Source: a virus
Lineage: Duplodnaviria; Caudoviricetes
Direction: 5' to 3' (one strand)
IMG/VR virus record: IMGVR_UViG_3300037418_002332
DNA length: 64,000 bases
Shown here: in pieces, positions 27,204 to 61,724 of the stretch
Numbering within the stretch: the first letter of the stretch is position 1
Layout: each line of letters opens with the position of its first letter
The notes under the pieces: model-generated
Database searches by the model: none
Told to the model about the DNA's origin: nothing
Seen by the model: only the letters and a program-made list of their open reading frames with translations
Made by a program: the position numbers and the translations under genes

Positions 27204-27211
27204 TTGTTAAA

Positions 27212-27254
27212 AACAAAGATATCTCTTTACTCCTTACCAATCATTTAGTATAAT
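27212..27254 (+). promoter_or_regulatory. early promoter
   Basis: ACAAAGATATCTC-TTTACT-N17-TATAAT. Confidence 0.75.
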
Positions 27255-27276
27255 GATTGTAGATAAGGAGTTTGAA

Positions 27277-39925: not shown

Positions 39926-40209
39926 AAATCTCAGGCAAAACAGTTGATTACAAAATTGTGGTAGATGAGGTGTTCGAATTCATCGACACCCATGGTTTGC
40001 CATTAGATTATGTATTGACTTATCTTCATGAACGTAATATGGAAATGGACTGGCTTGCGTTCTTCTTAGATGCTAAGAAAGCCGGTTGGAATATCTCAAC
40101 GATCAAATCGAAAAGTATGGCTGCTGTCGCTGATGCGTTCGGTGGTCGTTCCGTCAGGACACTGGCGATAAATGACAGAATTGCTAAAGCATTGGACCCA
40201 TTCTTATGA
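39922..40209 (+). CDS. small protein resembling an alanyl-tRNA synthetase helical fragment
   Basis: VFEFIDTHGLPLD...ERNMEMDW..F resembles AlaRS AF.LYDTYGFPLD...E.G..VD..GF. Confidence 0.55.
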   Translation: MKISGKTVDYKIVVDEVFEFIDTHGLPLDYVLTYLHERNMEMDWLAFFLDAKKAGWNISTIKSKSMAAVADAFGGRSVRTLAINDRIAKALDPFL

Positions 40210-40766
40210 AAACTGCATTGATTATTGGAAACGGTGTTTCCCGGAAAAAACTCAATCTGCATGCTTTACCGCCTGAAGGTTTCACAACCTTTGGGTGCAA
40301 CGCATTATATCGAGAGTTCACTCCTGATTGGTTAGTGGCCTTGGACGATAAAATCATTGAGGAGATCAATCAATCCGATTTCCCCAAGGATCGCTTCTAT
40401 GTACCGCCTTTCGATGAGCAGTTCGAGCCTGCCATATACAATCCCAGTCGGCCTAGGGAGAACGCTGGCATGATCGCTATGCGTTTGGCGATCCAGCTAG
40501 GTTATGATAATTTAGAGCTCATAGGATTGGATTTTTTGGTGGAAGATGGCGTGCTGAATATGGCTAACATTTATGATGGCACGAATGCCTATGGGCCTGA
40601 AACACGGGCAAGTTATTTTGATTGCATTATGCGTTCTGAATATTTCAGATGGTTTGTTAAACAAAATCCGACTGTGAAGTTCAAGGTTATCTATCCTGAA
40701 AGTTTTATCACCGACCATGCTGTACGTGTGGCTCCAATGGACAATTTTGAATATGCGGTGTTCTGA
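40206..40766 (+). CDS. DUF115/Maf/GT29-like Rossmann-fold protein
   Basis: ALIIGNGVSR, FGCNALYR, LVALD, LELIGLDF. Confidence 0.65.
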   Translation: MKTALIIGNGVSRKKLNLHALPPEGFTTFGCNALYREFTPDWLVALDDKIIEEINQSDFPKDRFYVPPFDEQFEPAIYNPSRPRENAGMIAMRLAIQLGYDNLELIGLDFLVEDGVLNMANIYDGTNAYGPETRASYFDCIMRSEYFRWFVKQNPTVKFKVIYPESFITDHAVRVAPMDNFEYAVF

Positions 40767-45981: not shown

Positions 45982-46847
45982 TACTTGTCAGTTCCTGATA
46001 CTGGGTCATATTTCTTTCCATCATCAAACACTTCAATCGTTTCAATCAAAGCATATGGATCATCACGATTAATTTCACTAACTGGAATTGAATCACCCAA
46101 CACTGTGGTTGGTGTCCCATTTGCAGTCAATCCTGGTTGTACTGTAATTCTGGTATCACGACCAAATTTATCAACTTCATCACCAGTCACTGGACCGTTT
46201 CCTGGAACTGAAATCAAGTCAACAATAGCTCTCTTGATAACACCTTGACTTGAAATTGGACCAAAGAAATAAGCTGCCATTCTGAATTGAAGTGTCCAAT
46301 TGATAAATCTTGGTTCTTCAACACCACCTTGATATTCATCATTTTTGTCGATATTGGTCAATTCAACCATGGAGTCAAATCTCAAATCCATTTCTGGGAT
46401 AACAATAACCGTTGGTGTGAATGAAGGTCTGAAAAATGGAATGATTTGTCCAATTATTTGATGGGCATCATCAGTTGTCTTTGTGTAAATTTGAAGTGTA
46501 AAATCAAAGTTGTAAGGAATTTCAGCATATTGAACTTTCATCACATTTGAATTCAACACTTTGACGTTTTTTTGAATTGGATTGACTGCGCGTTCCCGAG
46601 CAAACTCAATGTTGGTCAATTCATAAGCCATTCTTGGGAGTTGAGTTTGGACTTTGGTGGTGATCGGATTCTTTTCATCCAAAGCAACAAACTTGGATGC
46701 ACCTGCGATTTGACAAGGCACTGGAATAACTTGAAGTTTTGTGCCTGTTGCATCCACTCTATGGATGTATATGTCATTGAACATATTACCAAAGACTGTT
46801 GAATATTTTCGAATTATGTCGTTGTTGAAGAACTCAACTCCAAGCAT
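45981..46847 (-). CDS. tail completion/terminator protein (gp15)
   Basis: FFN..IRK...VFG.MFN.I, LPRMAYE, EIPYNFDF.L.IY, QI..QI.PFF.P, W.L.F...YFFGP. Confidence 0.92.
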   Translation of the reverse strand: MLGVEFFNNDIIRKYSTVFGNMFNDIYIHRVDATGTKLQVIPVPCQIAGASKFVALDEKNPITTKVQTQLPRMAYELTNIEFARERAVNPIQKNVKVLNSNVMKVQYAEIPYNFDFTLQIYTKTTDDAHQIIGQIIPFFRPSFTPTVIVIPEMDLRFDSMVELTNIDKNDEYQGGVEEPRFINWTLQFRMAAYFFGPISSQGVIKRAIVDLISVPGNGPVTGDEVDKFGRDTRITVQPGLTANGTPTTVLGDSIPVSEINRDDPYALIETIEVFDDGKKYDPVSGTDK

Positions 46848-47692
46848 TACCACTTCCCTCTATTGATAAATGGTGATTGATCAGAATAATCAATGAGCAC
46901 TTCACCATTCTTTTGCAACAATTCATTATCAGCTTGACTATCTTTGTCTTCAATCACGTTGTTTTCTTCAACCAACACATCATTGCCTGATTGATCTTCA
47001 ATTGGGTCTCCATCTTCATCATCAAGAGCCTTTGGAAGTTGATCAGTGCTTAACAAAGTATTAAATGCATCAATTGCATCATCACCAGTATCAAATTCTT
47101 CGTTGTTGTAACGGAACAACTCGCACTTCAAATCATATGTAAGTAGAGTGCCAAGCGGATGGAACAAGTTTTCATGTTCTACGAATAGAATTTCAAAAAT
47201 TTTATCAACCATAGGCATGTAAATCAAGTCGCCAGCCTTCGGAAATGATGCTTCAACTGAATAATCACCACCAGGACCGTTTTCTTCAGTCAGCGTTACA
47301 GTTTCATAAGGTGTCCAATCAGGTGATTCAGCAGGTTCAATTGGATTACCATATTCATCCAACACTTTTTCTTCATTTGATTCACGCCAACGACGTCTTG
47401 AAACTGTGAAAGTAATTTGATCACGTTGTTCTTCACCAAACATGGTCATGATTTCATTCTGACCTTCATAGTTATCATATGATTTGACGTAAACTTCAAT
47501 TTCAAACGCATAATTGAATTTGGCAAATGTATCATCACCAAAAAGTGGATCACGTTCGAACTGTTCTCTTGGTATATAACGAATGAACATGCCATTCATT
47601 CTGATTGCTTGAATGATCAAATCCTCAATCAACTTTTGTCGAGGCTTGAAAAAGTAGTTGTTAACGAACGGATTTGGTGATTTTTCAACCAT
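46847..47692 (-). CDS. neck protein (gp14)
   Basis: EDLIIQAI.M.G..I.YIPRE, D.LFG.D, FGEE.RD, P.AGDLIY.P, FEI.FVEHE. Confidence 0.92.
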   Translation of the reverse strand: MVEKSPNPFVNNYFFKPRQKLIEDLIIQAIRMNGMFIRYIPREQFERDPLFGDDTFAKFNYAFEIEVYVKSYDNYEGQNEIMTMFGEEQRDQITFTVSRRRWRESNEEKVLDEYGNPIEPAESPDWTPYETVTLTEENGPGGDYSVEASFPKAGDLIYMPMVDKIFEILFVEHENLFHPLGTLLTYDLKCELFRYNNEEFDTGDDAIDAFNTLLSTDQLPKALDDEDGDPIEDQSGNDVLVEENNVIEDKDSQADNELLQKNGEVLIDYSDQSPFINRGKW

Positions 47693-48444
47693 TAAGCGAT
47701 TTCATCCAATACTGGGAAGTTGCCTGTTGAGATGAGCTTTTCTTCAAGCTTATCAATTTCATCAATAGCTTCTGAATACATCGTTTGAGCATCTAAAGTG
47801 ACACCATTCAACAATGGAATGTTTGAATACAACTTCAGATTTTCTGCCCACTGACGTTTCATCAACGCAGTTGCATATCTCTTCAACCAACGATCTTGCC
47901 AGATAGAAGCATATTGATTAGGGTCAAGGAAAGCTTCAGTTTCAAAGATGATTTTATTACCTAGAACCATGATCTGTTGACCAGCTGCACCGTAAATTTC
48001 AACAGTGTTGGTAATCTTGCTGAAACGAATTGACGGAGTAGTGTTGAATAGGAAATTGATATCCGCCAATCTTGTCATAGCCACGTAATATGGAATGAGT
48101 GTGTAAGAAACATTATGATTCATGTTGTAAAATTCATCGCGGAGATACTGATAACGATCAGACATCCAACTAGAGTCAAAGTAACCAACAGGTGGCAGAA
48201 TGTTGGATACAGTCATGATAGTTTCCGGCAAATGGATTTTACCAGTGTCGATGTCTTCTTGAGTTATGGTATGAATATAGAGTGACTTTTCTGAACCGAG
48301 ATAGTGATAATCTCGATAAAAAGCTAATGCATCGTCTATTCTATCCATTGCTTGTTCATTCTCAACGTTGACTTGGATTACAGGCCATCCTAGACGACGG
48401 AAAATGTATGCTTTGAATTCTGCTTTTGATCTTGGTTCTGCCAT
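47692..48444 (-). CDS. neck protein (gp13)
   Basis: PRSK.EFK.YI.RRLG.PVI.VNV, DRWLKRYATALMKRQW..NL, GVTLD. Confidence 0.93.
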   Translation of the reverse strand: MAEPRSKAEFKAYIFRRLGWPVIQVNVENEQAMDRIDDALAFYRDYHYLGSEKSLYIHTITQEDIDTGKIHLPETIMTVSNILPPVGYFDSSWMSDRYQYLRDEFYNMNHNVSYTLIPYYVAMTRLADINFLFNTTPSIRFSKITNTVEIYGAAGQQIMVLGNKIIFETEAFLDPNQYASIWQDRWLKRYATALMKRQWAENLKLYSNIPLLNGVTLDAQTMYSEAIDEIDKLEEKLISTGNFPVLDEIA

Positions 48445-48876: not shown

Positions 48877-48993
48877 GTTCTGGAGCTTGCCTAGCCTCTC
48901 CCTTCTGTTCCATGGGATGGGTGAGTTCTGGAAACCCACCGCGAGTCCGCCACTCCCCCCTTCGGTTAGGATCGCGGTGGGTTCTTCATTTTT
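48877..48993 (+). ncRNA. candidate small regulatory RNA with two CU-rich-loop hairpins
   Basis: 15-bp stem (6 G-U pairs) 48878-48933 with CCUCUCCCUUCU loop; 12-bp perfect stem 48933-48983 with CCACUCCCCCC loop; U-run 48989-48993; promoter upstream; no RBS-led ORF. Confidence 0.65.
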
Positions 48994-49594
48994 ATGAAGG
49001 CCAATAAGAATTGTTGGTGTAGTCCGTTGGAATTGGACTGGTGGATTTAATTGCTCTCGCGGCAAAAATGCACTTTGTTTCCCATGATGCGGCTGCTTGA
49101 CCGAAAGCAAAGCACGTTGGAGCATCCATCAAATTCAGGCTGTTATCATCAGCGATCCAAACGAAATCTGATGTACCTCCATGCCAACGATAGTTTCCTG
49201 CTGCGGCTCCAGCAGCCATTGCGAACCCTGCTAGAGTCGCTGCTCCGATGATACGAGCCTTGGACTCGTTGTCCATCGCGTAGCTTTTACCGTTGAAAGT
49301 GAACCCTGTTGCGATTCGGCGATCGCGCTCAGCATTCACTTCAGTTGACGTTACAACTTGAGCAACAGTTGACCAAACATATTTTGGAATACCATTGGTA
49401 ACAACAACCGAAACTGATGTTGGAATACGACCAGCTGGAATTGGATCGGCAGAAACAATTTCTTTCAATGTATGCGTAGCGTTTTCCCAACCAGCATATG
49501 CTGGGGATGTTTGATCATTACCAATCGTAAATGATCCACCAGGAAGGACTTCCTTCACGAAACTTGCGTCTGACTTCTTAATAAGTGCTAGCAT
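48992..49594 (-). CDS. tail-fibre-associated protein (DUF4376-like C-terminus)
   Basis: VNAERDRRIATGFTF.G..Y..D..S..RI.GA, WIADDNS...MDA. Confidence 0.7.
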   Translation of the reverse strand: MLALIKKSDASFVKEVLPGGSFTIGNDQTSPAYAGWENATHTLKEIVSADPIPAGRIPTSVSVVVTNGIPKYVWSTVAQVVTSTEVNAERDRRIATGFTFNGKSYAMDNESKARIIGAATLAGFAMAAGAAAGNYRWHGGTSDFVWIADDNSLNLMDAPTCFAFGQAAASWETKCIFAARAIKSTSPIPTDYTNNSYWPS

Positions 49595-50228
49595 TTTTTA
49601 TCCTGTTGTAAAGTTCAATGTCTTGTTCATAGTATTTATTGACAGCATTTCGTGTATCTTCATTGTAAAACCTATCAACAAATTCCTTTGTATCATGACC
49701 ATTAATGGACTTGTTTTGCCATTTCAATGGTTCCTTAACTTCAACTCCATATGTTTCAACAAATTGATTAATATGTTTTTGGATGTTATCAAATAGCCAC
49801 CAAGTTCCAACTTGTTTACCTTGATATTCCAAAAATGTATGCTGTTCTTGATTTTGCCAAAGTGTGTCTGGATAATATCCACTCATGACACTTTCTCTGA
49901 AATGCTGAACACTCGGATTTGAAATCAAACCTTGTTTTGCTCTATACAAATACAAGCTCAATACACGTTCAAATGGTTCTCTGATAACTCCAACGATAGT
50001 TTCATTCAAATCAATTAATCCATGTTCAACTGCATATTCAACATCCATATGGGAATGTGGTGCATGAACACCCATACCTTGAGACCAATGATCAGTTGGA
50101 GTGTTGTAATATGCAGTGTAACGATCTTCAGGACCAACTACATTATCAATAAAAAACCGTCTAATTGATGTAGAAGCATTCTTCGGAACGTTGATGAAAT
50201 TGAATTTATACTTTCGTATGCTTATCAT
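49578..50228 (-). CDS. sulfotransferase family 2-like protein
   Basis: PAPS-binding-type FINVPKNASTSI and IREPFERVLSLY; Y..D.ELY C-terminus. Confidence 0.82.
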   Translation of the reverse strand: MISIRKYKFNFINVPKNASTSIRRFFIDNVVGPEDRYTAYYNTPTDHWSQGMGVHAPHSHMDVEYAVEHGLIDLNETIVGVIREPFERVLSLYLYRAKQGLISNPSVQHFRESVMSGYYPDTLWQNQEQHTFLEYQGKQVGTWWLFDNIQKHINQFVETYGVEVKEPLKWQNKSINGHDTKEFVDRFYNEDTRNAVNKYYEQDIELYNRIKNASTY

Positions 50229-50788
50229 CGCATTAGGAATGTGTTAAGGGTTAATCGGATGGAGTCGGTTGATCGATATGAATGCCAGGTAACTCCAGAT
50301 TTACCAGCAAATACCATAGTTCTATTTGGTTTCCATAAAATTTGTTTCACGAAGTTTTTCTTTTGATCATAAAGCATTGTACCTTGACCTGAACTTGGAT
50401 ACAAATAAGTCACTGATGATAGAACTTTATCTTCAGATTCATCATGGACTGGGTGTTCAGCTGAAGTTAAACAAAGTATGCATTCTCCATACAATCTCAA
50501 ATTTGTATAATCACGATGATCTGGAAACAATTCAAGCAATTCATTAACATTTTTGCTTTGAAGTAATTTTTGAGTTATCGGAAATTTAGCATTAGTATAG
50601 AGATTGTTTTTGGATATGAAAATATTGTTGCCCGATTTGACAACAAATTCATTTTTATCACTTGTTAATAAGCTGAACATTTCCCTTGTTGCATTTTTGA
50701 GCAACTGTTCGTCATAATGATCGTCTATTACAACATGAGGCCATGGATCATTTGAAATTGATAATGCGTTGTTCAATTCGTTCCTCAA
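50225..50788 (-). CDS. 2OG-Fe(II) oxygenase
   Basis: HPVHDE...KVLS.V.YL, WKPNR..VF, TWHSY, R.TLN (HxD...H...R). Confidence 0.82.
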   Translation of the reverse strand: MRNELNNALSISNDPWPHVVIDDHYDEQLLKNATREMFSLLTSDKNEFVVKSGNNIFISKNNLYTNAKFPITQKLLQSKNVNELLELFPDHRDYTNLRLYGECILCLTSAEHPVHDESEDKVLSSVTYLYPSSGQGTMLYDQKKNFVKQILWKPNRTMVFAGKSGVTWHSYRSTDSIRLTLNTFLMR

Positions 50789-51533
50789 AGTTTGAATATG
50801 TTACATCAATGCACAGTTCATGTGCATACCATGAAAGGAAACGCTTCAAATCAGTTTGATCAACAGGTTGAACATCTTCCAATTCATATGCAGTATTTAT
50901 CATGGGTAAAATTTCAGAAAATGCAGTGGTGTCATAACTTGCAACTGGTTTTCCACGAATCATCGCATTAACACTGACTGATGACCATGAACTAAACACT
51001 CTTTCTGCATTGTCAAGTAAATGATCCAAATTGCAATTGGCATCAGCAAATATAGCATATTTGCTTTCAGGAATTGTAATTTGTGTAAGTGGATGTTGTT
51101 TGAAAATTGTATATACTTTACGATCGTTTGCATAGTTTATAGCATCCATCAGATGATCATATTCAGCACCGATGCTATCCTGCATCAAAAACAAGTTGTA
51201 TTGATCGGGTAATTGGATTTTGTTTGATGCGGGGATATATTTTGAACCAAAATGGTCAGTGATATTTGGATCAATATCACTGGTTTTCCATTGATTGAGA
51301 AAAGGATTCACTCTATCAAGATATTGATGATTTGGTGCGAATACAAAAAAGTTGATATTTGGTGAACCAAATCTCCAAGTCAATGTGTGATCAAAATTGG
51401 CATGATCATAAAGTTCAGAAAAAATACAATTTGATAGATTGTGCTTTTCAAGAATACGATCAACAGCTGAAGCTACTTTGAATACAATTGGAAATATGTA
51501 ATGAGTTTGGTGTAAATTACGAACACCATGCAT
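50748..51533 (-). CDS. KpsS/KpsC-like capsule-polysaccharide (GT107-like) transferase
   Basis: LFLMQD, FKQHP, SSVSVNAMIRGKPV..Y; start moved to ATG 51533. Confidence 0.65.
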   Translation of the reverse strand: MHGVRNLHQTHYIFPIVFKVASAVDRILEKHNLSNCIFSELYDHANFDHTLTWRFGSPNINFFVFAPNHQYLDRVNPFLNQWKTSDIDPNITDHFGSKYIPASNKIQLPDQYNLFLMQDSIGAEYDHLMDAINYANDRKVYTIFKQHPLTQITIPESKYAIFADANCNLDHLLDNAERVFSSWSSVSVNAMIRGKPVASYDTTAFSEILPMINTAYELEDVQPVDQTDLKRFLSWYAHELCIDVTYSNFEERIEQRIINFK

Positions 51534-51549
51534 CCACTTTAATACAAGA

Positions 51550-52260
51550 TTAAGATTTGATTGCCTTTGGTTTGATGTCAAACATGTATTCATTATCTTC
51601 ACCAACCTTTTCAGCTACCAATTTTGCCCTTGGTTCTTTAATCTTTTTCTTACGAACATAAACAACAGGACATTTATCATTCAATGCATTTTGGATGGTT
51701 TGTTTGAACCATCCTTCTGAGTCAGGTCTACAAATCAAACAAACCATTGAATCATCAAATTTAAATCCAAGGGCATTTGTCAATGTTACTGGATATTCTG
51801 CAGTTTCATACTTTACAACATCAATGCATGTCACTTCGAAACCTTCATCAGCAAGTATTTTGCCAACATGACCGGTGCCTGCTCCACAATCTATTATGTG
51901 TTTACCTGAATACAATTCTTTCATCTTATCAATGAATATTTGTTTCGGTTTGAAATATATTTCATTTGGAAGGAAATTAGGAACTGCTTCAAGTATTTCA
52001 GCAAATTGCTCATCAGTCAAAGTTCGTTCATTGTATGAAGCAACAATTTCACTTTCATGTGCTTTTTTATAAGCTGCTATGACTTCATCTGTCCAAACTG
52101 TTTTGTGTGCTTCATTGACAGCATCTCTAACTTCAGGAATCAAAAAATCATCTGCAGACATTCTGATCCATTTGTTATCAACAATTTGAGCTGGTGGAAT
52201 TTCGAAAGTGACACCAGGAATTTCAAGATGGAGAATCTTGAATGGACCTACATAGTTCAC
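51550..52260 (-). CDS. class I SAM-dependent methyltransferase with N-terminal tail-associated domain
   Basis: IIDCGAGTGHVG, VTCIDV; N-terminus ...EVRDAVNEAHKTVWTDEVIAAYK. Confidence 0.7.
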   Translation of the reverse strand: MNYVGPFKILHLEIPGVTFEIPPAQIVDNKWIRMSADDFLIPEVRDAVNEAHKTVWTDEVIAAYKKAHESEIVASYNERTLTDEQFAEILEAVPNFLPNEIYFKPKQIFIDKMKELYSGKHIIDCGAGTGHVGKILADEGFEVTCIDVVKYETAEYPVTLTNALGFKFDDSMVCLICRPDSEGWFKQTIQNALNDKCPVVYVRKKKIKEPRAKLVAEKVGEDNEYMFDIKPKAIKS

Positions 52261-53129
52261 GGCTGGACAAACCTCATTGATTGAACAAAATTGCTGTAAA
52301 AATAATATGTTGTTGTCGTGCTTCCACCACTGTGACCACCGCCACCGCCAGTTGTAATAGATGTGTATCCTGTATCAGTGACAAAAGTGCCACTAGCATC
52401 CATTGTATTGAGTGCAATTTGCCTGGATTTGCCACCATATGTGGCGTTAGTTTCAATTACTCTAGTATTTGCTGGTCCTGAATGTCCGATTGTTGGAATA
52501 GTAGAATCAGTTAAATCCAAACCACCTTTAATGAACACCAGATCATTTGCGTTGACTGCAATGCTTGTTGTAGAATGGCCAGAGCTGGATGATTGTCCAC
52601 CACCATAGAATGAATTAGTAACTCCAGTCCATTTACCCGGAAGAACAAACACTTGTTGACTGTTTGTCATTGAAGTATTGCTTGCCTTATTAAATGTCAC
52701 ATTTACAGATGATAAATTTCCAAATCCTAAAGGAATTTGAAATTGACATAACGTGAAATAAGCTCCAACACCAGTCGTTTTATCGTACAGAATTGTTTCA
52801 TCAGTAGCAGAATATGCTCCATTGTTGACATTAACTACAGTTGTTCCTGGTGTAGAACCATGTTCATTGAGTGTCAACAAAGTTGTCCATCTGCTGTTTC
52901 GATTAAGGGATTGGGGATAAGTTAAAGTTCCGCTAATGGATGTAGCTGTGGCATATGTTGAATCAAAGCCTTCTGCGAAAGGACCTGCACCTGCATTTGT
53001 TTCAAAGCCTTGGGCAATCGAAGTCTTAGAAATCAGTTGATTTCTAGATGAGATCGTTTTCAGATCGGTGATAACATCAGTAACAGTTATCAGAGTTGGA
53101 CTAGGTGGAATCAGAGGAAACGGAAACAT
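52257..53129 (-). CDS. Ser/Thr/Gly-rich tail-fibre accessory protein
   Basis: beta-rich S/T/G composition directly downstream of the fibre gene. Confidence 0.6.
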   Translation of the reverse strand: MFPFPLIPPSPTLITVTDVITDLKTISSRNQLISKTSIAQGFETNAGAGPFAEGFDSTYATATSISGTLTYPQSLNRNSRWTTLLTLNEHGSTPGTTVVNVNNGAYSATDETILYDKTTGVGAYFTLCQFQIPLGFGNLSSVNVTFNKASNTSMTNSQQVFVLPGKWTGVTNSFYGGGQSSSSGHSTTSIAVNANDLVFIKGGLDLTDSTIPTIGHSGPANTRVIETNATYGGKSRQIALNTMDASGTFVTDTGYTSITTGGGGGHSGGSTTTTYYFYSNFVQSMRFVQP

Positions 53130-53138
53130 TATTTATCC

Positions 53139-54944
53139 TTACGAAGTCTTCGTGATGCTGCACAACTTGATTCCGCTTATGCTGGTAATAAACAGCAAGA
53201 ATGTACTTCCCACAGTCAAATCCAAACTATCACCATTAACTTTTGTGAAACCTGAGAACGTAACGGCACCAGGAGCTGAATTGTACAAATACAATACCAT
53301 AGACCCTTCTGCGGAAGGTGCAGCAAGGGTGAATGCTCCGCCATTTCTAATCAACTGAAGATTTCTTGATGCAATATTAGGTGTCAATGTGCCACTTGAT
53401 TGAGTACCAAGATCAAGTGTTGTTGCTGTATAACCAGTAGTTAAATTTTTAGTGACGCTTGGTTGAATGTATCGAGCATCTTGTTCAACTTGGCTGATTT
53501 GGCATTTGTACCATGCTTCCCAAGTACCATTGTTTTGAGCTCTACGATAAATTTTAGTATCAGATGAGCTGTCTGCTGTAAAACTATGAATAGTTTGAGT
53601 ACACCAAGCACCATTGTGATTTTCGACAGTGCCAATCCACCAACTTGTATCAGGAGCATTGGCAACTGAAGAACCCATGTACCAACCGTTTTCAGTGGCA
53701 CTGTTCCAATCAGTTATGGTTTTAGCAACAGTTCCTAATCTAGTTGACAATCTAGCATCAGGCAAAGTACCTGAAGATTGGTTAGATGAATTTGCGTAAT
53801 AACCACCAGTTTGACCATCAAGTAGATCGGCATCAAGGCCCGAACCAGCACCGTCAACTGTTTTGATTTTTGTCAAAACGTCGGATGCGGTATAAGAAGC
53901 TGCTGCGAGATAGTATGCGCCTTGTTGACCATCAAGTAGATCGGCATCAAGACCAGAAGCTGGTCCATCGACCGACAGAAGTGGTGTCAATACGTCTGAA
54001 CCTGTCAAGGTCAAAGCGTGAGTATGGGATGTTGAAGTTACAGCATTTGTTGAAGATGAAGTAATTGTTCCCGGTGTACCCAAAGTCAAAGTTCTATCGG
54101 CACCAAGTGTACCACCACCTGTCATACCATTACCAGCTATAATTTGTCTGCTTGCAAAGGCATATAGCGTATCAGCATAAGTTTTAATTGCGGCTTTGAA
54201 ATTTGTCCAAGTAATTTTCTTCAATGCAAATGATGCAGCACTGTCATCCAAAGGAAGAACGTCAGCATCATCAATTGTAGTTTTAGCAGTTGCACCTGAA
54301 ATCGATGAACCAACATTTGTAGCTGACGTCACATCAGCGTTTGTGGCAACAGAATCAAGTTTAGTTTTGTCTGAAGCTGAAAGGAAACCAGCAACAGAAG
54401 TTGTTGCAACAGAGTGAAGTGTACCACCACCACGTGATCCGTGTGAAGAATCACTTATTCTGCCAGCAGGTAATGTACCTGCATTCATATTATCGGCATT
54501 TTGATAATATGAACCGTGTTGTCCGTCTAGTAAATCTGAATCAAGGCCAGAAAGAGCACCATCAACCAAAACCAAACGAGACAACATATTAGAACCGTTT
54601 GAATAGGTGTTAACATATGTGTTTGCTGCGAAAGTTGAACGAACGTAGTTGTTTTGTGCGAATCTACCATTGGTATAATTTCGCATGTAAGTATTTGATG
54701 CGTAGAAAGTGCCTTCTTGTCCATCCAAAAGATCAGCATCTAAACCTGACAAATGTCCATCAACAGTTGACAGTCGAATCAACATATTTGATGCGTTTGA
54801 ATATTGGTTAACATAAGTTGAGTCAGGAATTGTGGTGTTAGCTGTGATTGTGTTGACAGCAACAATCAATTTGTTGGTGGTATTTGCCCATTGAGGAACG
54901 CTTAGTGTAGAGCTACCTGAAATATCAAGTAAGGAAATTGCCAT
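53139..54944 (-). CDS. tail fibre protein
   Basis: four SGLD(A/S)DLLDGQ repeats; pyocin-knob-like DWNSATENGWY.....ANAP...W. Confidence 0.88.
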   Translation of the reverse strand: MAISLLDISGSSTLSVPQWANTTNKLIVAVNTITANTTIPDSTYVNQYSNASNMLIRLSTVDGHLSGLDADLLDGQEGTFYASNTYMRNYTNGRFAQNNYVRSTFAANTYVNTYSNGSNMLSRLVLVDGALSGLDSDLLDGQHGSYYQNADNMNAGTLPAGRISDSSHGSRGGGTLHSVATTSVAGFLSASDKTKLDSVATNADVTSATNVGSSISGATAKTTIDDADVLPLDDSAASFALKKITWTNFKAAIKTYADTLYAFASRQIIAGNGMTGGGTLGADRTLTLGTPGTITSSSTNAVTSTSHTHALTLTGSDVLTPLLSVDGPASGLDADLLDGQQGAYYLAAASYTASDVLTKIKTVDGAGSGLDADLLDGQTGGYYANSSNQSSGTLPDARLSTRLGTVAKTITDWNSATENGWYMGSSVANAPDTSWWIGTVENHNGAWCTQTIHSFTADSSSDTKIYRRAQNNGTWEAWYKCQISQVEQDARYIQPSVTKNLTTGYTATTLDLGTQSSGTLTPNIASRNLQLIRNGGAFTLAAPSAEGSMVLYLYNSAPGAVTFSGFTKVNGDSLDLTVGSTFLLFITSISGIKLCSITKTS

Positions 54945-55152: not shown

Positions 55153-58100
55153 TTACTTTTGTAGACAGATAGCACGCATATCACGGCATCTTGGAACAAC
55201 TACTGAATCACTACTCAATAGAACGATCTTGATTGACAAGTATTTGTAACCAGTAAATTGAACGTTCTTTGAGTTAATGTATTGGTATTCACCATTCAAA
55301 CCAGTCAAGTTTGCATCATCAATTGAATATTCAAGTTCCTTGAAGTCCAATCTGTCTTCAGTATCAGAATACAGATTCTTGGAAGTCATGGTCAAAGGAA
55401 CCCACTCAATATCATCGAAAGTATCTGAATCAGAAGCATTCAACAATTTTGCATATACAAGAATATCAGTGGATGGTGGTCTGTAACCAGTTACATAAAC
55501 CTTCAAGTCTTCAGCATCTTGACCTTCAGCCAAAGTTACTTTTCTAGTGATGTACTTATTTAGGGCATTGCCTCCGGTGTTACTATCTTCACCAGTTGAG
55601 TCATTGTTAATGATATTGTGAACAAAGATATTATGTACTCTAGAAGTATTAACAACTGGAGAAACATTAGTATCAAATGTAGTCAAAGTAGAACGAAGTC
55701 TCAAAGTATCGGATGCAACAGAAGCAGATGAAATAATCTTTTCTTCAGATACAGTATAGTCACTACCAACTGGAATTCTTGTCAAAGCTGAAAGTGAATT
55801 GGTATTTGAAGTTGTGCGGATATCCCAATCAATGTATGTGTTCAACAAAATAACTTCGGCTGATTGCGGATTAACCAAATTGAATTTCTTCGCTTGGAAT
55901 GAACCAATAATCGCTGAGTTATTTGAAGTTTCACCACGAATATTTTCACCAACAGTGAAGGCTGTTGAGTTAGTTCTAACAACATCCATCAAGAATGTGT
56001 TAGCAGTTGAAGAGTTGTATTTCAAAAGCGTACCAAGAGGCACAACAGTGCTTGAAATTGTACCAGTCACACCCTTCGCGGTGTTATTTGCATAGCGAAC
56101 TGAGAAAGTTTCGACAGGAGTAAAATCAGTGAATACGTCTTTCAATCTGAAGTTTGGAGAAGTGCCTGAAACAACAGTACCTCGACCACCAGAAGTTGTG
56201 CCGACGATGATATCAGTATTTGCAATTGTACCACCAGTTACGCCGGATACAACCATTCTGGTTTCACCGTAAATTGTTTCACTGACTTCGTCCCATTCAC
56301 CTGAAGTGGATGAAAGTGATAGGAAGTCAGTTGGAACGTTCACGAAGTCAGCATAACCTGAACCTGAAGTGAATTGTGCAATAAACAAGTCCAACTTGAA
56401 GTCTTCATCTTGGATAGGTTCATATACACCATCGTTTGATGAAGCATAAAGAACACCAGCAAATGGTTGCTTTGAAATTTTTTCACCAGTTACAACGTCT
56501 GTTCTACCAAGCTTAGCAACCCAAAGTGTAGTTTGATCATTGTTTGCTTCAGGTTTTACAATCAAAGCATATGAGGTGTTATTCATCAAGAATATTGGAC
56601 CATCAAAAGTCACAGTTGTTGCAGTTGCAGCAGTAGCTGAAACGTTAATACTTGCTGACGGAATTCTAACCTTTGAACCTGGAACAACTTTATTGGTAAT
56701 GTATTGTGCTGAATTCAATTCACGAAGTTCAACAATAGCACCATATGTAGCATGTTTTGAAGCAAAATACAAATTTACACCAGTGAAGAACAAACCAGGT
56801 GACAGTCCTGAATCAACCAAGAAAGTTTGAGCAATAGGATCGTTAGGAGAGCCTGTACCACGGCCTGATGAACCACCAGCTTCTGATCCACCACCACCTC
56901 CGCCACTAGTGCCATTAATAACTCTGGTTTGAGTTGATGAAGTAGTTGGAGTTGGGCTGAAAGTAGTTACAGTCGCAGTTTGTGTCAAAGTGTTAATTGA
57001 AATATCAGGAATTTCAGTTGACACGATAGTGTTTTGTTTGGTTTGATTCAAACCAGAAGCGTTGAACGCTGCTTGACCTGAAGTTGTAACCAAACCTTGA
57101 TCAGTTTCATTTGTTGAACTGTCGGTCAATCTGAAATTTCTTTGCCCAGTTCTGAATCTCAATGAATTATTATTTGGAATTACAAATGTACCATAGATCA
57201 AACCATTTGAATCAGTCATCAAAGTAGATGATGGGTTCAAGTAATTTGAATCAGTCTTTTTGGTATATGAAGTGATATTCTCACCATCAAAGAACGCATA
57301 AAGTTTGGTTGAAGGTTTGAAACCTGAACCGAAGTATTTTACAGTTTGTTGACGAATGAAAGGAATGACGCTGACGTCAACAACTCTATCACCATAGTTT
57401 TGAGTTTGAGTACCACCACTTGATACTAGAAGTTCTGTACCACTTCTTGTTGAAGTAGCAGTCGTGGTTGTACCACCACCTGAAGTGGTTGTTGTAGTTG
57501 AAGTGGTTGTTGACGAACCAATTCTTGAAGTAGAGGTAGAAGTTGTTGTTCTACCTGCAGTTGTTACTGAACCAGTGATGACGGTTTGCCATGCACCCCA
57601 ATCTGTGCCCCAAGCATCTGAAAGTTGTTGCCAGTTGTCAAGGTTGGTTGTATCGGTGATTTGCAAGTCTGGGATGGTAGTTGTGTCAACCCAATAATCA
57701 CTGTTTGGAGTAAGAACGATATCACCAACATAGTTGTAGAACAAACCAGCTGCGTTTCTAGTTGACGTAGCATTTGGCTGTGACAAGTAAGTGCTGGTTG
57801 TATATGGTCTGGTCAAATTCTTACCTGACAAAGTCAAACCTGAATTTGAAACATACTTCATAGCAATATCATCCATCACAAAGATAGGACGAATTTCTGA
57901 AGCTGTACGATCAACTGCGATGTTGTAATCTGGATTTGATAAATCACCAACACCGTGGTCGTTGAATGGATCAACCAAAATACCGTTCTTGAATCTGTCA
58001 AGACCATCTTCATCGACGATCTTAGTGTCGAAAGTATCTTTTTCAAGCATAGACAAAGTGACATAGTATTCAAGATTTGAAATACGTTGTTCAAGTGTAC

Positions 58101-61026
58101 CAATATCTTTCATAGTATAACGCTTGATAGCGATGTTTTGAACTTTGTTTGCGTAGCTTGGTCTATTAGCTGCAACGGCAATACTTGAAGGCAAGCTTGG
58201 ATATGGAGCAATGTTAACGATTGAAAGAACCATAGATTCTTCAAGGTTATTAGGCACTGCTGGGTTCAGACTTGGAATACCTTTGATTTGTTGGATCAAA
58301 CCATTTTTGTCAACAATGATCAAGTCTTTTCTTGGCAAGTAATAGCTGTAATCAATAATGAAGTCACTGTTTGGAGTTGCAGTATGTAGACCACCAGTTG
58401 GTACAATGAAGGAATTTGTAGTTGCTGGATTTTCCGTAGCAGAACCAATTACAGTTGTAGTTGTTGCAGTATTGGTTTTAGCTGATCTTGTATCAATACA
58501 ATCACGAAGATTGAATACTTCACCAGTAATTGTTGATCTGAAAAGTGGAATTTGTTGAGTGGTGATTGCATTTGTATTTGCTGCACCATTAACATCATCA
58601 ACTGGATAGCTGTCAACTGAATAGTAACCAGCACCTTGAGTTGTGTCATGTTCAAAATGATCTAAGCTAACCAAAAGATAATCACCGGAAGCAACCGCAC
58701 CAGTTACAAGTGGGCGAAGCTTAGCATGATCATAGAAATTATCTCTTTGACCATCATCCAAAGCAAAATTTTCAGTGACTAATGTACCTTCAGAAGTTGA
58801 AGCAAAGGCTGAACCTTTCTTTCTAACCCAATTGATACGAATTACGTCTGACAAACCAAGATTCCAAGGTCCAACTGTAGTTGCAGGGTTGGTTGAAATG
58901 CGAATTTTAACTAATCTGTTTGTACGAAGGATTTTCTTGATTTCTTGAGCTGTTGTTTTTCTCAAGTTGGTGATAATTGATGCAGAAACTGTACCAGTAT
59001 AAGTTTCTTTCAAGTCAAACGCAGCTGAAGTTGAAGAAGAGATAGTTACAGTACGATCTGTACCATTGTCAACACCCTTCAATGATAGATCAACTATGTC
59101 ACCGACCAAATATCTCTTAGAGAACGCTGAAGATGACGCTGGCGAGCTTGGTGCAGCGTCCAAAGTCATCAAAGTATTGTTTGTGATGGTTGCAACACGA
59201 CGAACTGATGATGAATCAGCAATTAAAATCTTGTCACCAACGTTCAACTTGGTGAAAGCAGTGCCTGAACCGTTGACAGTGGTACCAGAAGTTGAAATTG
59301 TACCTGCCATCAAAATAGAAGTTGCCGCATTGAAGCAAAGTTGGAAATTTTCACGCTTCTGAGTAGTGTTCAGAGCACCTGCACCGAATGGAAAGATTTC
59401 GTTCGCGGTGCCAGTGTTAAGTGTAAAGGTGCCGTTGGTACCAATTGAGATGTCGAATTTCTTTTTGAAGCTGAAACTTGTCTCAACATTTCCGCCATCA
59501 TCACGAATTCTCTTGATATTTTCAGTTGGAATTTTGAAAATTGAGTTGTCAAAGTTCTTTTCAAGTAGTTCTGGTGTACCATAAACGTCTGCAGAAGCAT
59601 CCGCAGTTGATGCATTATCGTAATGAAGTGCTTTTACTGATGAAAACGCAGCATTGGACATGACAACATTGGTTAAATGTGCTCTATAGATAGCTGAATT
59701 TGCGCCAGGAATACCAGATTCATATTCAATTGATTTTAGAGTTGCTGTACCAATTTGAGCACCGGAAGCAGAGCCTGAATATGTTCTATTGGTGATCTTT
59801 TTATCGGCTGTATCGTGAAGAGTAACGACAATACCATCGTTGACATTCCAGTCACCGACTAATTCATTTACTCTTACATAGTTACCATAGTTGGCAGCAA
59901 TGGTTTGGCCTGAAACTTCTTTGGCATCAATGCCTTTTTCGATTGAAACATATTCCGTAACAATCTTTTCAACTTCATAACCCTTGACATATGCTTTACC
60001 AGGTTCAACACCAACTGCAAGCAATGAAGAATTACCACCATCGATTTGAGAAAGGAAACCAGCGTTTGTACCATCATTCAGATGTTCACGAAGTCTGATT
60101 TTTAGACCATTGACAACATAGTCACCAGATTCATCGTAAGTTCTGCGTGCGAATTCGTCACGGATAACAGAATATTCAGTACGAGTGACGAGCTTATTAA
60201 TAACACCTGATCGAATATCGAGAATTTGGATAAAATCATCAGGAATTGTATCACCGTCATTGTATACGCGAAGTACAGGAACAAGTTGAAGACGGTCTGC
60301 ACCAGGAGCCGCGTAATTGTAGGAGCCTGAAGCTGGGTCAAGGAGGGTAAAGTCTTCGTTGTTGGTGATGATGTTTTCTTCAATTACAAACCCTGCCTTA
60401 CATGTCGGAGTCAATGAATATTTGGAAAGGATAACTCTTTGTTCATCGAAACGAATAAAGTGGTCCTTAGCAAAAATAATACCATCAGTGATATGAAGTG
60501 AAACACCAGTACCAACCGCAGTGTTTGAGTTGAATACTTGGAATGTTACACCGGTGTTTGAGGTGATTGTTTCGTTTTTCTTGAAGACTTTTTCAGTACC
60601 ATCGGTTGAGCCTGAAAGGTATTTGATGAATAGAGTTTTAGTATCTGGGTCTTCAGCTTCTGAACCAGAAGCATATGACATGACCAATGCGTTGATACCA
60701 TTGTTAGCTGATGTAAGTCTCTTACCTACAAGCTCAGAGAGATTTAATGGATTTGAAATTGTGTCTTCATCATTGACCTTGATATAGAATGTGTCATAGT
60801 CAACATTAGTCTTACCATTCTTAACGATAGCACCTTCAGCAAAGAAGTGCTCAGCATTACGATCAATTTGGTTTTGAAGTATAGTTTGAAGCTGAGTGAG
60901 TTCACGTGCTTGAACTGCCAAACTTGGATTGAACAAGATTCTATGGTAGTTCTTATTTTCATTGAAATCGTCATAGTAAGGTGACGTGTTGAAATTGGTG
61001 GTCAGTGTGTTATTATTTGCCATCAT
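55153..61026 (-). CDS. giant virion structural protein (DUF4815/VrlC-like)
   Basis: N-terminal NFN.SPYYDDF...KNY.RILF.P..AVQARELTQLQ.ILQ.Q; APGADRL; IEYYVTLSMLE; RFKNG.LVD.F. Confidence 0.9.
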   Translation of the reverse strand: MMANNNTLTTNFNTSPYYDDFNENKNYHRILFNPSLAVQARELTQLQTILQNQIDRNAEHFFAEGAIVKNGKTNVDYDTFYIKVNDEDTISNPLNLSELVGKRLTSANNGINALVMSYASGSEAEDPDTKTLFIKYLSGSTDGTEKVFKKNETITSNTGVTFQVFNSNTAVGTGVSLHITDGIIFAKDHFIRFDEQRVILSKYSLTPTCKAGFVIEENIITNNEDFTLLDPASGSYNYAAPGADRLQLVPVLRVYNDGDTIPDDFIQILDIRSGVINKLVTRTEYSVIRDEFARRTYDESGDYVVNGLKIRLREHLNDGTNAGFLSQIDGGNSSLLAVGVEPGKAYVKGYEVEKIVTEYVSIEKGIDAKEVSGQTIAANYGNYVRVNELVGDWNVNDGIVVTLHDTADKKITNRTYSGSASGAQIGTATLKSIEYESGIPGANSAIYRAHLTNVVMSNAAFSSVKALHYDNASTADASADVYGTPELLEKNFDNSIFKIPTENIKRIRDDGGNVETSFSFKKKFDISIGTNGTFTLNTGTANEIFPFGAGALNTTQKRENFQLCFNAATSILMAGTISTSGTTVNGSGTAFTKLNVGDKILIADSSSVRRVATITNNTLMTLDAAPSSPASSSAFSKRYLVGDIVDLSLKGVDNGTDRTVTISSSTSAAFDLKETYTGTVSASIITNLRKTTAQEIKKILRTNRLVKIRISTNPATTVGPWNLGLSDVIRINWVRKKGSAFASTSEGTLVTENFALDDGQRDNFYDHAKLRPLVTGAVASGDYLLVSLDHFEHDTTQGAGYYSVDSYPVDDVNGAANTNAITTQQIPLFRSTITGEVFNLRDCIDTRSAKTNTATTTTVIGSATENPATTNSFIVPTGGLHTATPNSDFIIDYSYYLPRKDLIIVDKNGLIQQIKGIPSLNPAVPNNLEESMVLSIVNIAPYPSLPSSIAVAANRPSYANKVQNIAIKRYTMKDIGTLEQRISNLEYYVTLSMLEKDTFDTKIVDEDGLDRFKNGILVDPFNDHGVGDLSNPDYNIAVDRTASEIRPIFVMDDIAMKYVSNSGLTLSGKNLTRPYTTSTYLSQPNATSTRNAAGLFYNYVGDIVLTPNSDYWVDTTTIPDLQITDTTNLDNWQQLSDAWGTDWGAWQTVITGSVTTAGRTTTSTSTSRIGSSTTTSTTTTTSGGGTTTTATSTRSGTELLVSSGGTQTQNYGDRVVDVSVIPFIRQQTVKYFGSGFKPSTKLYAFFDGENITSYTKKTDSNYLNPSSTLMTDSNGLIYGTFVIPNNNSLRFRTGQRNFRLTDSSTNETDQGLVTTSGQAAFNASGLNQTKQNTIVSTEIPDISINTLTQTATVTTFSPTPTTSSTQTRVINGTSGGGGGGSEAGGSSGRGTGSPNDPIAQTFLVDSGLSPGLFFTGVNLYFASKHATYGAIVELRELNSAQYITNKVVPGSKVRIPSASINVSATAATATTVTFDGPIFLMNNTSYALIVKPEANNDQTTLWVAKLGRTDVVTGEKISKQPFAGVLYASSNDGVYEPIQDEDFKLDLFIAQFTSGSGYADFVNVPTDFLSLSSTSGEWDEVSETIYGETRMVVSGVTGGTIANTDIIVGTTSGGRGTVVSGTSPNFRLKDVFTDFTPVETFSVRYANNTAKGVTGTISSTVVPLGTLLKYNSSTANTFLMDVVRTNSTAFTVGENIRGETSNNSAIIGSFQAKKFNLVNPQSAEVILLNTYIDWDIRTTSNTNSLSALTRIPVGSDYTVSEEKIISSASVASDTLRLRSTLTTFDTNVSPVVNTSRVHNIFVHNIINNDSTGEDSNTGGNALNKYITRKVTLAEGQDAEDLKVYVTGYRPPSTDILVYAKLLNASDSDTFDDIEWVPLTMTSKNLYSDTEDRLDFKELEYSIDDANLTGLNGEYQYINSKNVQFTGYKYLSIKIVLLSSDSVVVPRCRDMRAICLQK

Positions 61027-61112: not shown

Positions 61113-61724
61113 TCACTTTTGAACTTTCACCATTACAGTTTGATGCTTCAAATATTCTTTCAAAATTGTCAATTCACCCAATTTGGATAAAAATTCAATT
61201 CCTCTAGTTCTTTCTCTGACATCAGTTATGATAATACATCCATCTTTTGCTTGTGCTTTAATTTTGTCAAAGTATTCAGTTATTGGGAAATGAAATCCCC
61301 AAGCAATAGTAGATATGATCAAGTCCAATTCCACATTCGGAAACTCATTTTTATTTCCGTCATAGATATTGATATGTTCTATTGGTATACCATTTCTATT
61401 CAAAAATGCGGAAGTCAAATTCAAATCGCAATAAATGCTACCTTCATCGAACCCATATACAACATCATCAGATTTACCATGCTTATCCAATAAATGAAAA
61501 TTTGGTTTGTTATCATAATGTTCATTCAAAAGACAATTTATGGCGCCCATACCACAACCAATATCCAAAATGTTAGTCGCTGATTCTGGCAAGTATAGTT
61601 TTATAGCATCAAACTGATTTACAACACCATCATAAAAATCATCACCAAAATTATTTGACTTGTTTAATGCAGTTCTCTGTAACTTGAGATATTCAATTTC
61701 ATCTTCATTGATGGGTGATAGCAT
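61113..61724 (-). CDS. class I SAM-dependent methyltransferase
   Basis: ILDIGCGMG, HLLDK, DLIIS..AWGFHFP. Confidence 0.85.
   Translation of the reverse strand: MLSPINEDEIEYLKLQRTALNKSNNFGDDFYDGVVNQFDAIKLYLPESATNILDIGCGMGAINCLLNEHYDNKPNFHLLDKHGKSDDVVYGFDEGSIYCDLNLTSAFLNRNGIPIEHINIYDGNKNEFPNVELDLIISTIAWGFHFPITEYFDKIKAQAKDGCIIITDVRERTRGIEFLSKLGELTILKEYLKHQTVMVKVQK

Follow-up and report, generated by a model that had tools for sequence, protein, structure and literature searches.

In an uncultured T4-like soil phage, a set of sugar-modifying and tailoring enzymes is encoded inside the tail-fibre genes as a conserved cassette with a fixed structural partner, which is the new observation of this analysis. 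The favoured reading, held at a probability of roughly 45%, is that this fibre-linked glycosylation and tailoring cassette, organized around a CMP-ulosonic-acid transferase (likeliest a CMP-Kdo transferase), decorates a fibre-tip protein in the cytoplasm. The sugar placed on this candidate target would most likely be acidic, sulfated and methylated.

Organization of the locus

The window is the whole stretch of 64,000 nucleotides that was analysed. An ORF check of positions 49578–52260 finds four enzyme genes on the minus strand, with neighbours abutting or overlapping each other, between a tail-fibre gene and gp13. The four ORFs, their coordinates and their flanks, as described in the first-pass annotation, are confirmed. 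The features of the region are the following:

53139–54944, minus strand: tail-fibre protein P0015, 601 aa (PHROG tail-fibre families, E down to 5e-24)
52257–53129, minus strand: P0016, 290 aa, Ser/Thr/Gly-rich and beta-rich, candidate fibre-tip protein (no named family)
51550–52260, minus strand: P0003, methyltransferase ORF, the 5'-most of the four enzymes
51946–52260, minus strand: N-terminal adaptor/chaperone-like domain of P0003, ~100 aa (alignment to stand-alone genes in relatives)
51550–51945, minus strand: putative class I SAM-methyltransferase domain of P0003, residues ~105–236 (motif I and sub-threshold Pfam matches)
50748–51605, minus strand: KpsC-like glycosyltransferase (GT) ORF, divergent Capsule_synth, likely start ATG at 51533, giving 261 aa
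50225–50788 as ORF, 50225–50776 as annotated part, minus strand: prolyl-hydroxylase-type (PF13640) 2OG-Fe(II) oxygenase (fold model and invariant residues)
49578–50228, minus strand: PAPS-dependent sulfotransferase, Sulfotransfer_2 (PF03567 and PAPS-binding motifs)
48992–49594, minus strand: DUF4376 tail-fibre-associated protein, 200 aa, closing the module (PF14301, E 3e-18; PHROG tail-fibre families)
47692–48444, minus strand: gp13-type neck protein, downstream boundary of the module (phrog_211, E 3e-33)
46847–47692: gp14, confirmed as flank

P0015 carries repeated VDG..SGLDADLLDGQ motifs, and its conservation alongside the cassette is limited to the C-terminal ~110 aa, where residues 489–599 match the fibre genes found upstream of the cassette in the related loci L008, L010, L012 and L022. 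The position of the cassette in a gap-free string of structural genes would fit the late expression that had been assumed; the T4 late-promoter motif TATAAATA has no occurrence in the 64-kb window, and a scan of 47–56 kb for sigma-70 promoters and terminators gave signals at chance level only. The 247-kb genome contains no KdsB/NeuA-type cytidylyltransferase, KdsA or APS kinase, and the phage therefore depends on its host for the supply of CMP-Kdo and PAPS. The rhizobial, rhizosphere setting originally proposed has no basis and was considered but not adopted, since the data do not point to any particular host for this uncultured phage; its neck protein shares no more than 38% identity with those of phages of Ochrobactrum, Caulobacter and Sinorhizobium.

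Conservation of the cassette

The order of the cassette, running from a P0016-like structural protein through a small protein of ~100 aa, a GT and a 2OG oxygenase to a sulfotransferase, is held in uncultured phages down to ~30% identity, always with fibre genes around it. The full order is seen in L008, L010, L012, L022, L013 and L014, and the surrounding genes encode Peptidase_S74 fibres and LtfC-like, Phage_tail_APC, Gly_rich_2 and DUF4376 proteins. In L012 the block is distant from gp13, yet it lies beside fibre genes of its own and the DUF4376 protein travels with it. A P0016 homologue immediately precedes the cassette in L008, L010, L012, L013, L014, L005 and L022, and a search of viral contigs with a P0016 profile found the cassette in every locus retrieved (6/6). 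The arrangement is not a product of chance, since every related locus fetched repeats the same order. When a phage collection was searched by DNA and protein with the block, the sulfotransferase and the GT, no match and thus no cultured relative with the cassette was found there.

Around this constant core, the methyltransferase domain is found in L008, L010 and L022 and is missing from L012, and some relatives have substituted radical SAM/SPASM enzymes, a group that often matures peptides. A further relative, L016, carries orthologues of the small protein, the GT (37% identity), the 2OG oxygenase (45%) and the sulfotransferase (44%), and its cassette runs directly into KdsA (NF003543, 330 bits against an equivalog cut-off of 242), with a gene for a KdsB-type cytidylyltransferase right after it. 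This continuation into KdsA and KdsB points to CMP-Kdo as the donor.

A divergent KpsC-like glycosyltransferase

The GT gives no match in hmmscan with Pfam, and its score against PF05159 (11.3 bits, E 0.02) falls below the gathering cut-off of 20. The profile of its family found 272 representatives, and all 36 of the distant matches that were tested (E 1e-11 to 1e-6) belong to PF05159, while hhalign relates it to the phage's own canonical Capsule_synth paralogue with 96.8% probability (E 3e-10). Its AF2 model (pLDDT 83) has the modified GT-B fold of the KpsC/WbbB type, the best Foldseek matches being KpsC (8fux, 8fuw, 6mgd, 6mgb) and WbbB (8csb, 5fa1), with E 5e-7 to 1e-4 and TM 0.45–0.53; a PDB profile search gave marginal hits only (WbbB E 0.035, KpsC E 0.9). 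Despite the failure of Pfam, the GT is a divergent Capsule_synth (KpsC/WbbB-fold) homologue, and the initial assignment as a KpsS/KpsC-like transferase is borne out by profile homology, hhalign and Foldseek alike.

The (K/R)XHP motif for CMP binding, common to retaining Kdo transferases and sialyltransferases (PMC12887879), is present in the GT as K145-Q-H147-P148, and across 97 subfamily members K/R is found in 93, H in 92 and P in 89. As to the canonical QXXXD motif, Q118 is kept (82/97 members), the +4 position is Gly here and variable in the subfamily, and the nearest conserved acid is E124 (+6), with an acid at the aligned column in 56 of the 97 members. QXXXD itself is present in the distant canonical homologues and in the Capsule_synth paralogue of the phage. 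Because its Asp is absent at the canonical spacing, the mechanism of the GT, and even its activity, are uncertain. The putative donor is most likely CMP-Kdo, as the L016 cassette indirectly indicates, and the guess of a 'Kdo-like' glycan has gained strength from the Capsule_synth homology, the K-x-H-P motif and the KdsA and KdsB-type genes that follow the L016 cassette.

With KpsC/KpsS (GT107), the N-module of WbbB (GT99), KrkA (GT140) and PF05159, the phage GT thus has in common the modified GT-B fold, profile homology and, through its relative, KdsA and KdsB neighbours. It differs from these enzymes in lacking the Asp four residues past the Gln, with an acid at +6 in the phage clade; in being a single module of ~260–300 aa that is mostly viral (its nearest Atlas clusters are 71–97% viruses); and in lying among tail-fibre genes instead of capsule or O-antigen loci, with an acceptor that is possibly a protein.

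The tailoring enzymes

The AF2 model of the oxygenase (pLDDT 90) has the double-stranded beta-helix fold (Foldseek TM 0.71). Its top structural matches are all protein prolyl hydroxylases (Tpa1, OGFOD1, PHD2 and P. putida P4H; Z 16–17), VIA giving Z 16.8 for Tpa1 (rmsd 2.9, 177 aligned residues) and Z 16.4 for PHD2, and PolD and PasI, whose substrates are eight-carbon sugar acids, are nearly as close (Z 15.7). The iron triad H111-x-E113...H165 and R174, the basic residue for the C5 carboxylate of 2OG, are invariant in 13 homologues. The score against PF13640 is 16.8 bits, below the gathering score of 27, and 10 of 13 family members have sub-threshold Pfam matches (best E 1.6e-4); a PDB sequence search with the 2OG profile returned nothing useful. 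Fold matches and invariant residues together uphold the identification as a 2OG-Fe(II) oxygenase. A functional model for the GT–oxygenase gene pair is offered by KdoO, the Fe(II)/2OG-dependent Kdo 3-hydroxylase of Yersinia and Burkholderia LPS (PMC8533242), in which a 2OG oxygenase acts right after a Kdo transferase. No sequence relationship between the two enzymes was found, the phage one being of the prolyl-hydroxylase type, and PF11004 (Kdo_hydroxy, KdoO) has no match in the 247-kb genome at E <= 1.

The sulfotransferase scores above the cut-off for PF03567 (36.4 bits against 22, E 8e-9) and has both PAPS-binding motifs, PKNAST (5'-PSB) and RxPxxRxxS (3'-PB), of which PKN.S and R.P.....SL are invariant in 15 homologues. 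Its assignment therefore stands, although a PDB sequence search gave nothing useful. For P0003, the ORF and the motif I GxGxG (DCGAGTG) at residue 124 agree with the proposed methyltransferase, and the Pfam matches (Methyltransf_32/31/23/25) are all sub-threshold (best E 0.001, 19.5 bits against 27), with no PDB sequence match for the domain below E 0.07; at this motif level, the assignment is putative. All four enzymes are soluble and their cofactors are cytoplasmic.

Elsewhere in the window, the GT4 gene at 34134 is secure (E 1e-12), the second methyltransferase at 61113 is only probable, having weak matches, and the 'DUF115/GT29-like' label of the gene at 40206 was not sustained, its match to CST-I (E 0.0025) covering only 35 residues. 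Comparison of the methyltransferases at 51550 and 61113 showed that they are not paralogues.

P0016 and its predicted adaptor

P0016 has no Pfam or PHROG match, and its Atlas model resembles viral hypothetical proteins only (TM 0.59). As it has no G-X-Y repeats, the idea of a collagen-like hydroxylation target was dropped. The N-terminal domain of P0003 exists as a free-standing gene of 97–118 aa in L012, L013, L014, L005 and L016, whereas here it forms a single protein with the methyltransferase. Complex prediction for this domain with P0016 gave a score of 0.66, against 0.00 for the best of 3 controls; in the benchmark, 58 of 80 solved complexes attain that mark, as do 2 of 110 mismatched pairs, counts that hold only roughly for a run made with the analyst's own alignments. 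At least 59% of the contacts are shared between runs, the partner pLDDT is at least 69, and invariant Pro and Thr/Ser residues of P0016 lie within the predicted contact strand. The modelling supports binding of the P0003 N-domain to P0016, the candidate fibre-tip protein and candidate substrate. Alternatively, the small protein may be no more than a fibre chaperone, joined to the methyltransferase by coincidence.

Proposed mechanism and alternatives

In the proposed scheme the donor, the order of the reactions and, above all, the acceptor are what we infer, set upon the observed folds, families, motifs, gene order and fibre linkage and upon the KdsA and KdsB genes of the L016 cassette. Late in infection, P0016 and the enzymes would be made together in the cytoplasm. 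The ~100-aa N-domain of P0003 would dock through beta-strand pairing with a conserved strand of P0016 that is rich in Ser/Thr (residues ~57–67), bringing the fused methyltransferase to it. The divergent GT may then draw on host CMP-Kdo to attach an acidic, Kdo-type sugar either to P0016 itself or to a sugar that P0016 already bears. The 2OG oxygenase may hydroxylate this sugar, as KdoO does in converting Kdo to Ko, or an acceptor residue, and the product would be capped by the sulfotransferase with host PAPS and by the methyltransferase with SAM. The fibre would end in a small, negatively charged, host-like glycan that could tune receptor binding, stability or recognition. The more specific form of this proposal, in which the fibre-tip protein is directly O-glycosylated with Kdo (or Ko) and then sulfated and methylated by enzymes recruited through the small adaptor domain, is unlikely; it would represent a previously unknown protein glycosylation by a nucleophile-variant branch of the beta-Kdo transferases. 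To our knowledge, the acceptors of known beta-Kdo transferases are glycolipids or glycans and not proteins, which counts against decoration of the fibre.

The first-pass annotation had named both the virion and the host surface as targets. The virion gains from the constant company of the fibre-associated P0016 and from the predicted binding of the N-domain to it, and the host surface persists as a serious rival, if a somewhat unlikely one. Acting at the inner membrane face, the cassette would cap or alter lipid-linked O-antigen, capsule or LPS-core intermediates with Kdo, sulfate or methyl groups, as WbbB or the methyl/phosphate terminators cap O-antigens, and the fibre receptor would be masked on infected cells and debris, leading to superinfection exclusion or sparing the progeny futile adsorption. 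The closest structures, KpsC and WbbB, do use glycolipid and O-antigen acceptors (PMC10148158, PMC9587256); among distant Capsule_synth homologues there are fusions with methyltransferase, sulfotransferase and further GT domains of the kinds that characterize cellular polysaccharide pathways; and this is the usual reading of cell-wall and LPS genes, including kdsA and kdsB, in large T4-like cyanophages (PMC12801897). The linkage to fibre genes also weighs against fibre decoration, as it would also be expected of an enzyme masking the fibre's own host receptor, which would co-vary and co-travel with the receptor-binding fibre. However, the genes occupy the interior of the structural string, abutting or overlapping fibre genes, and not its edge as a moron would; they are invariably accompanied by a structural protein and by a small protein with predicted binding to it, the small protein being fused here to one of the enzymes; the neighbourhood contains no membrane anchors or export components; and if polysaccharide were altered strictly late, in the lytic phase, little time would be left for the change to appear on the cell surface.

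Direct protein chemistry without a Kdo glycan appears improbable. The oxygenase would hydroxylate residues of a fibre protein (prolyl or other), the methyltransferase would act on side chains, and the KpsC-like protein would add another CMP-sugar, such as a nonulosonic acid, to the new hydroxyl, or be catalytically altered. The arguments for it are the prolyl hydroxylases heading the oxygenase matches, the invariant Pro and Thr/Ser of the P0016 contact strand, the radical SAM/SPASM enzymes swapped in by relatives, and a GT without the Asp nucleophile of QXXXD, as in inverting sialyltransferases with an HP motif (PMC12887879). Against it stand KdsA and KdsB in the orthologous L016 cassette and the scores of PolD and PasI, so near those of the prolyl hydroxylases. 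Sulfotransfer_2 members, moreover, are mainly carbohydrate sulfotransferases. Free small-molecule synthesis or DNA hypermodification is very improbable: DNA is a frequent substrate of glycosyltransferases, methyltransferases and 2OG oxygenases from phages, yet DNA modification is unlikely for a cassette tied to fibre genes and not to replication genes, and we know of no DNA-acting members of PF03567 or Capsule_synth. The four enzymes, moreover, do not end in a clamp-binding tail.

Relation to known systems and significance

Decoration of the fibre has a precedent in the phage-encoded glycosylation of mycobacteriophage virions (Freeman 2023, cited in PMC12619734), where, according to that account, transferases encoded beside structural genes decorate virion proteins in the cytoplasm, the same layout that is proposed here. 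As described there, the enzymes are ordinary GT-A/GT-B hexosyltransferases, and their targets are the C-termini of capsid and tail-tube proteins in Gram-positive-type hosts, whereas the present cassette combines a putative Kdo-type transferase with an oxygenase, a sulfotransferase and a methyltransferase and is tied to a candidate fibre-tip protein. The cyanophages P-SSM2, S-SM2 and S-SCSM2R (kdsA, kdsB) are likewise T4-like phages with Kdo-pathway, glycosyltransferase and 2OG-oxygenase genes, but there the genes form large islands close to tRNA or hli genes and are interpreted as modifying the host surface (PMC3037559, PMC12801897), in contrast to the compact cassette of five genes found here, which sits within the fibre operon and has its own structural partner. 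The function of phage sulfotransferases, 2OG oxygenases and 'LPS genes' has been stated to be unclear (PMC10580990, PMC3037559, PMC12801897).

The cassette is small, the gene of its candidate substrate adjoins it, and CMP-Kdo, PAPS, SAM and 2OG are all expected to be available in E. coli, so that the proposal lends itself to a direct test in which the genes are co-expressed and the products analysed by mass spectrometry. Should the fibre prove to be the target, a Gram-negative T4-like phage would be glycosylating its virion with an acidic, host-like sugar, with consequences for receptor recognition and host range, and the beta-Kdo transferase superfamily would gain a new branch.

Genomic setting of the enzyme genes

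The uncultured virus record (247,119 bp, estimated completeness 97%), of which the window spans bases 105197-169196, belongs to a T4-like phage, whose gp14-type neck protein has its best identity, 38%, to Ochrobactrum phage vB_OspM_OC and shows about 32% identity to Caulobacter phage Cr30 and the Sinorhizobium phages phiM12 and phiN3. The phage's structural genes form a gap-free minus-strand string that encloses the four enzyme genes.

Structural gene string and embedded enzyme genes (window coordinates)
62367-63878, minus strand: baseplate wedge gene
61113-61724, minus strand: second probable methyltransferase, away from the cassette
55153-61026, minus strand: giant protein of 1957 aa
53139-54944, minus strand: tail fibre of 601 aa
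52257-53129, minus strand: P0016, a structural protein of 290 aa
49578-52260, minus strand: four enzyme genes, between P0016 and the DUF4376 protein
48992-49594, minus strand: DUF4376 protein
Following in the string, minus strand: gp13, gp14, gp15 and small terminase subunit

The four enzyme reading frames lie where the first-pass annotation had placed them, and they abut or overlap each other and the adjoining structural genes. The T4 late-promoter core TATAAATA has no occurrence in the 64-kb window, where 1.85 are expected by chance; the late-promoter consensus of this phage group presumably differs from that of T4.

Identity of the enzymes

The sulfotransferase (49578-50228; PF03567, E 8e-9, above threshold) is the only one of the four that Pfam recognises outright. 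Across 15 homologues there is no variation in its PKNAST loop for the 5'-phosphosulfate or in its RxPxxRxxS motif for the 3'-phosphate. The proposed 2OG-Fe(II) oxygenase (50225-50788) reaches only 16.8 bits on PF13640, and its assignment is borne out by the invariant triad H111-x-E113...H165 with R174, and by an AF2 model (pLDDT 90) that resembles the prolyl hydroxylases Tpa1, OGFOD1, PHD2 and P. putida P4H at Z 16-17, followed by PolD and PasI, enzymes on eight-carbon sugar acids, at Z about 15.7. The methyltransferase call for P0003, the product of 51550-52260, holds in part: motif I is clear but all family matches are sub-threshold, so that the protein is graded as a probable methyltransferase.

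The gene at 50748-51605, annotated as KpsS/KpsC-like and probably starting at the ATG at 51533, goes unrecognised by Pfam (11.3 bits on PF05159). Its AF2 model (pLDDT 83) has KpsC and WbbB as top PDB matches, and its family profile retrieved 272 cluster representatives, with all 36 distant ones tested belonging to PF05159, so that both routes uphold the annotation. It also aligns to the phage's other, canonical Capsule_synth gene with 96.8% probability.

Two further sugar enzymes had been proposed in the window. The GT4 gene at 34134 is real, while the 'DUF115/GT29-like' assignment at 40206 was not confirmed: phrog_30607, of unknown function, matches only the first 60 residues of this 186-aa product (40206-40766), and the CST-I sialyltransferase match is weak and short (E 0.0025, 35 residues). 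The frame could encode a CMP-sugar transferase that is divergent or has been truncated.

A variant catalytic loop in the transferase

Retaining beta-Kdo transferases such as KpsC, WbbB and KrkA are defined by two motifs, an invariant QXXXD, whose Asp serves as nucleophile while its Gln binds the Kdo carboxylate, and (K/R)XHP, which binds CMP and is common to sialyltransferases (PMC10148158, PMC12887879). The phage protein shares the latter with them as K145-Q-H147-P148, a motif kept by about 90 of the 97 subfamily members, and retains Q118 (82/97), but it lacks their Asp at +4 from this residue. In its own clade an acid is found at +6 (E124), and Asp or Glu occupies the aligned column in 56 of the 97 members; canonical QXXXD is present in more distant relatives and in the phage's own paralogue. 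Judged by these residues, it is a homologue with an intact CMP-sugar site and a variant catalytic loop, and it is not filed under GT99, GT107 or GT140.

The paralogue, a canonical Capsule_synth gene outside the window (about 26902-27858 of the full record G000:C1; L006:1012-1968; PF05159 E 2e-12), carries QIPHD and KGHP motifs and lies directly upstream of an endolysin-like gene with GH108, PG_binding and Peptidase_M15 domains; the phage thus has two Kdo-transferase-like genes. The 36 distant Capsule_synth homologues (P0135-P0192) include fusions to SAM-methyltransferase (3), Sulfotransfer_3 (1) and GT29 sialyltransferase (2) domains, so that the trio of transferase, methylation and sulfation functions is also found within single polypeptides.

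Conservation of the cassette

Among the relatives examined, all of them uncultured metagenomic contigs, the contig neighbourhoods of homologues show that the enzyme block is a conserved unit. Close relatives (L008/L002, L010 and L022; 50-75% identity) keep an identical order, methyltransferase included. The 163-kb contig L012 carries fibre, P0016-like protein, a 97-aa gene, transferase, oxygenase, sulfotransferase and DUF4376 in other surroundings, without gp13; fibre genes and enzymes have therefore moved together. Its 97-aa gene is 62% identical to residues 1-96 of P0003, which is therefore a small conserved protein joined to a methyltransferase domain. At about 30-40% identity, L013 and L014 present a Peptidase_S74 fibre, P0016-like protein, 117-aa small protein, transferase, oxygenase, sulfotransferase, GT8-like and LtfC-like genes; the GT8-like (retaining GT-A) gene (L013:7632-8300, L014:8183-8851) stands where the window's phage has DUF4376. 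Other variants have an O-methyltransferase in place of the sulfotransferase or added radical SAM/SPASM genes, always among fibre-type genes, e.g., Gly_rich_2 or Phage_tail_APC. The radical SAM/SPASM genes recur beside the transferase and oxygenase, sometimes replacing the sulfotransferase, and may serve either sugar or peptide chemistry.

Radical SAM/SPASM enzymes in relatives' loci
L005:6929-7855
L015:7527-8339 and 8930-9778
L016:4309-5253
L018:8537-9490

A P0016 profile search of viral contigs found the cassette at all six loci recovered. Of the fibre itself, only the C-terminal ~110 of 601 residues (489-599; 53139-53480) are conserved alongside the cassette, and the shafts of these relatives vary from 348 to 601 aa; as only this end is kept while shafts differ, it may be a docking domain for P0016.

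Probable sugar donor

In L016, orthologues of the small protein, transferase (37% identity), oxygenase (45%) and sulfotransferase (44%) are directly followed by two more genes. The first is KdsA, 3-deoxy-8-phosphooctulonate synthase, above both equivalog cut-offs (330 bits against 242, 325 against 314), and the second finds its best matches solely among Kdo cytidylyltransferase (KdsB) models.

Kdo synthesis genes inside a fibre-linked cassette
L016:2579-3987: KdsA and KdsB-type cytidylyltransferase, then genes for a cupin and a radical SAM/SPASM enzyme

These genes make CMP-Kdo the most likely donor, by an association that is indirect, though specific. KdsA, KdsB and APS kinase are all missing from the genome of the window's phage, which must therefore obtain CMP-Kdo and PAPS from a Gram-negative host. 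KdoO, a 2OG oxygenase that acts right after a Kdo transferase and produces Ko from the Kdo of LPS (PMC8533242), offers a precedent for this enzyme order, although the phage oxygenase lies outside the KdoO family.

Possible targets of the modification

The main reading, with a probability of roughly 0.45, proposes that the enzymes act on the neighbouring structural protein P0016. It draws on the constant presence of P0016 upstream of the cassette, on the fusion of the intervening small protein to an enzyme in the window's phage, and on a predicted complex between this small domain of P0003 and P0016. The complex scored 0.66, against 0.00 for the best of three controls, with at least 59% contact agreement between runs and partner pLDDT of at least 69; 58 of 80 solved complexes attained that mark, as did 2 of 110 mismatched pairs, and because the prediction used alignments made for this analysis, these counts apply only roughly. 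In the model, the small domain would pair its conserved TFEIPP strand with P0016 residues 57-67, which hold the invariant T63 and S66, with the invariant T70 and P72 just after. The prediction supports binding of P0016 by the small domain, although a plain fibre chaperone would produce the same complex.

Modification of a host surface glycan, the main rival, is a less probable but serious explanation, as it agrees with the known acceptors of KpsC and WbbB and with cellular Capsule_synth fusions to methyltransferase and sulfotransferase modules, and also accounts for linkage to a receptor-binding fibre. DNA modification is unlikely, since the enzyme families are unsuited to it and their genes lie in a structural context. 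None of the four enzymes ends in a clamp-binding tail.

Decoration of P0016 would have a parallel in mycobacteriophages, where phage-encoded enzymes are known to glycosylate the virion (Freeman 2023, as cited in PMC12619734). Phage sulfotransferases, 2OG oxygenases and kdsA/kdsB have been described with their role left open (PMC10580990, PMC3037559, PMC12801897), and the literature searched contained no report of tail-fibre operons that carry a cassette of Kdo-transferase-like protein, oxygenase and sulfotransferase. The particular value of this cassette is that it is compact and that a candidate substrate can be named.
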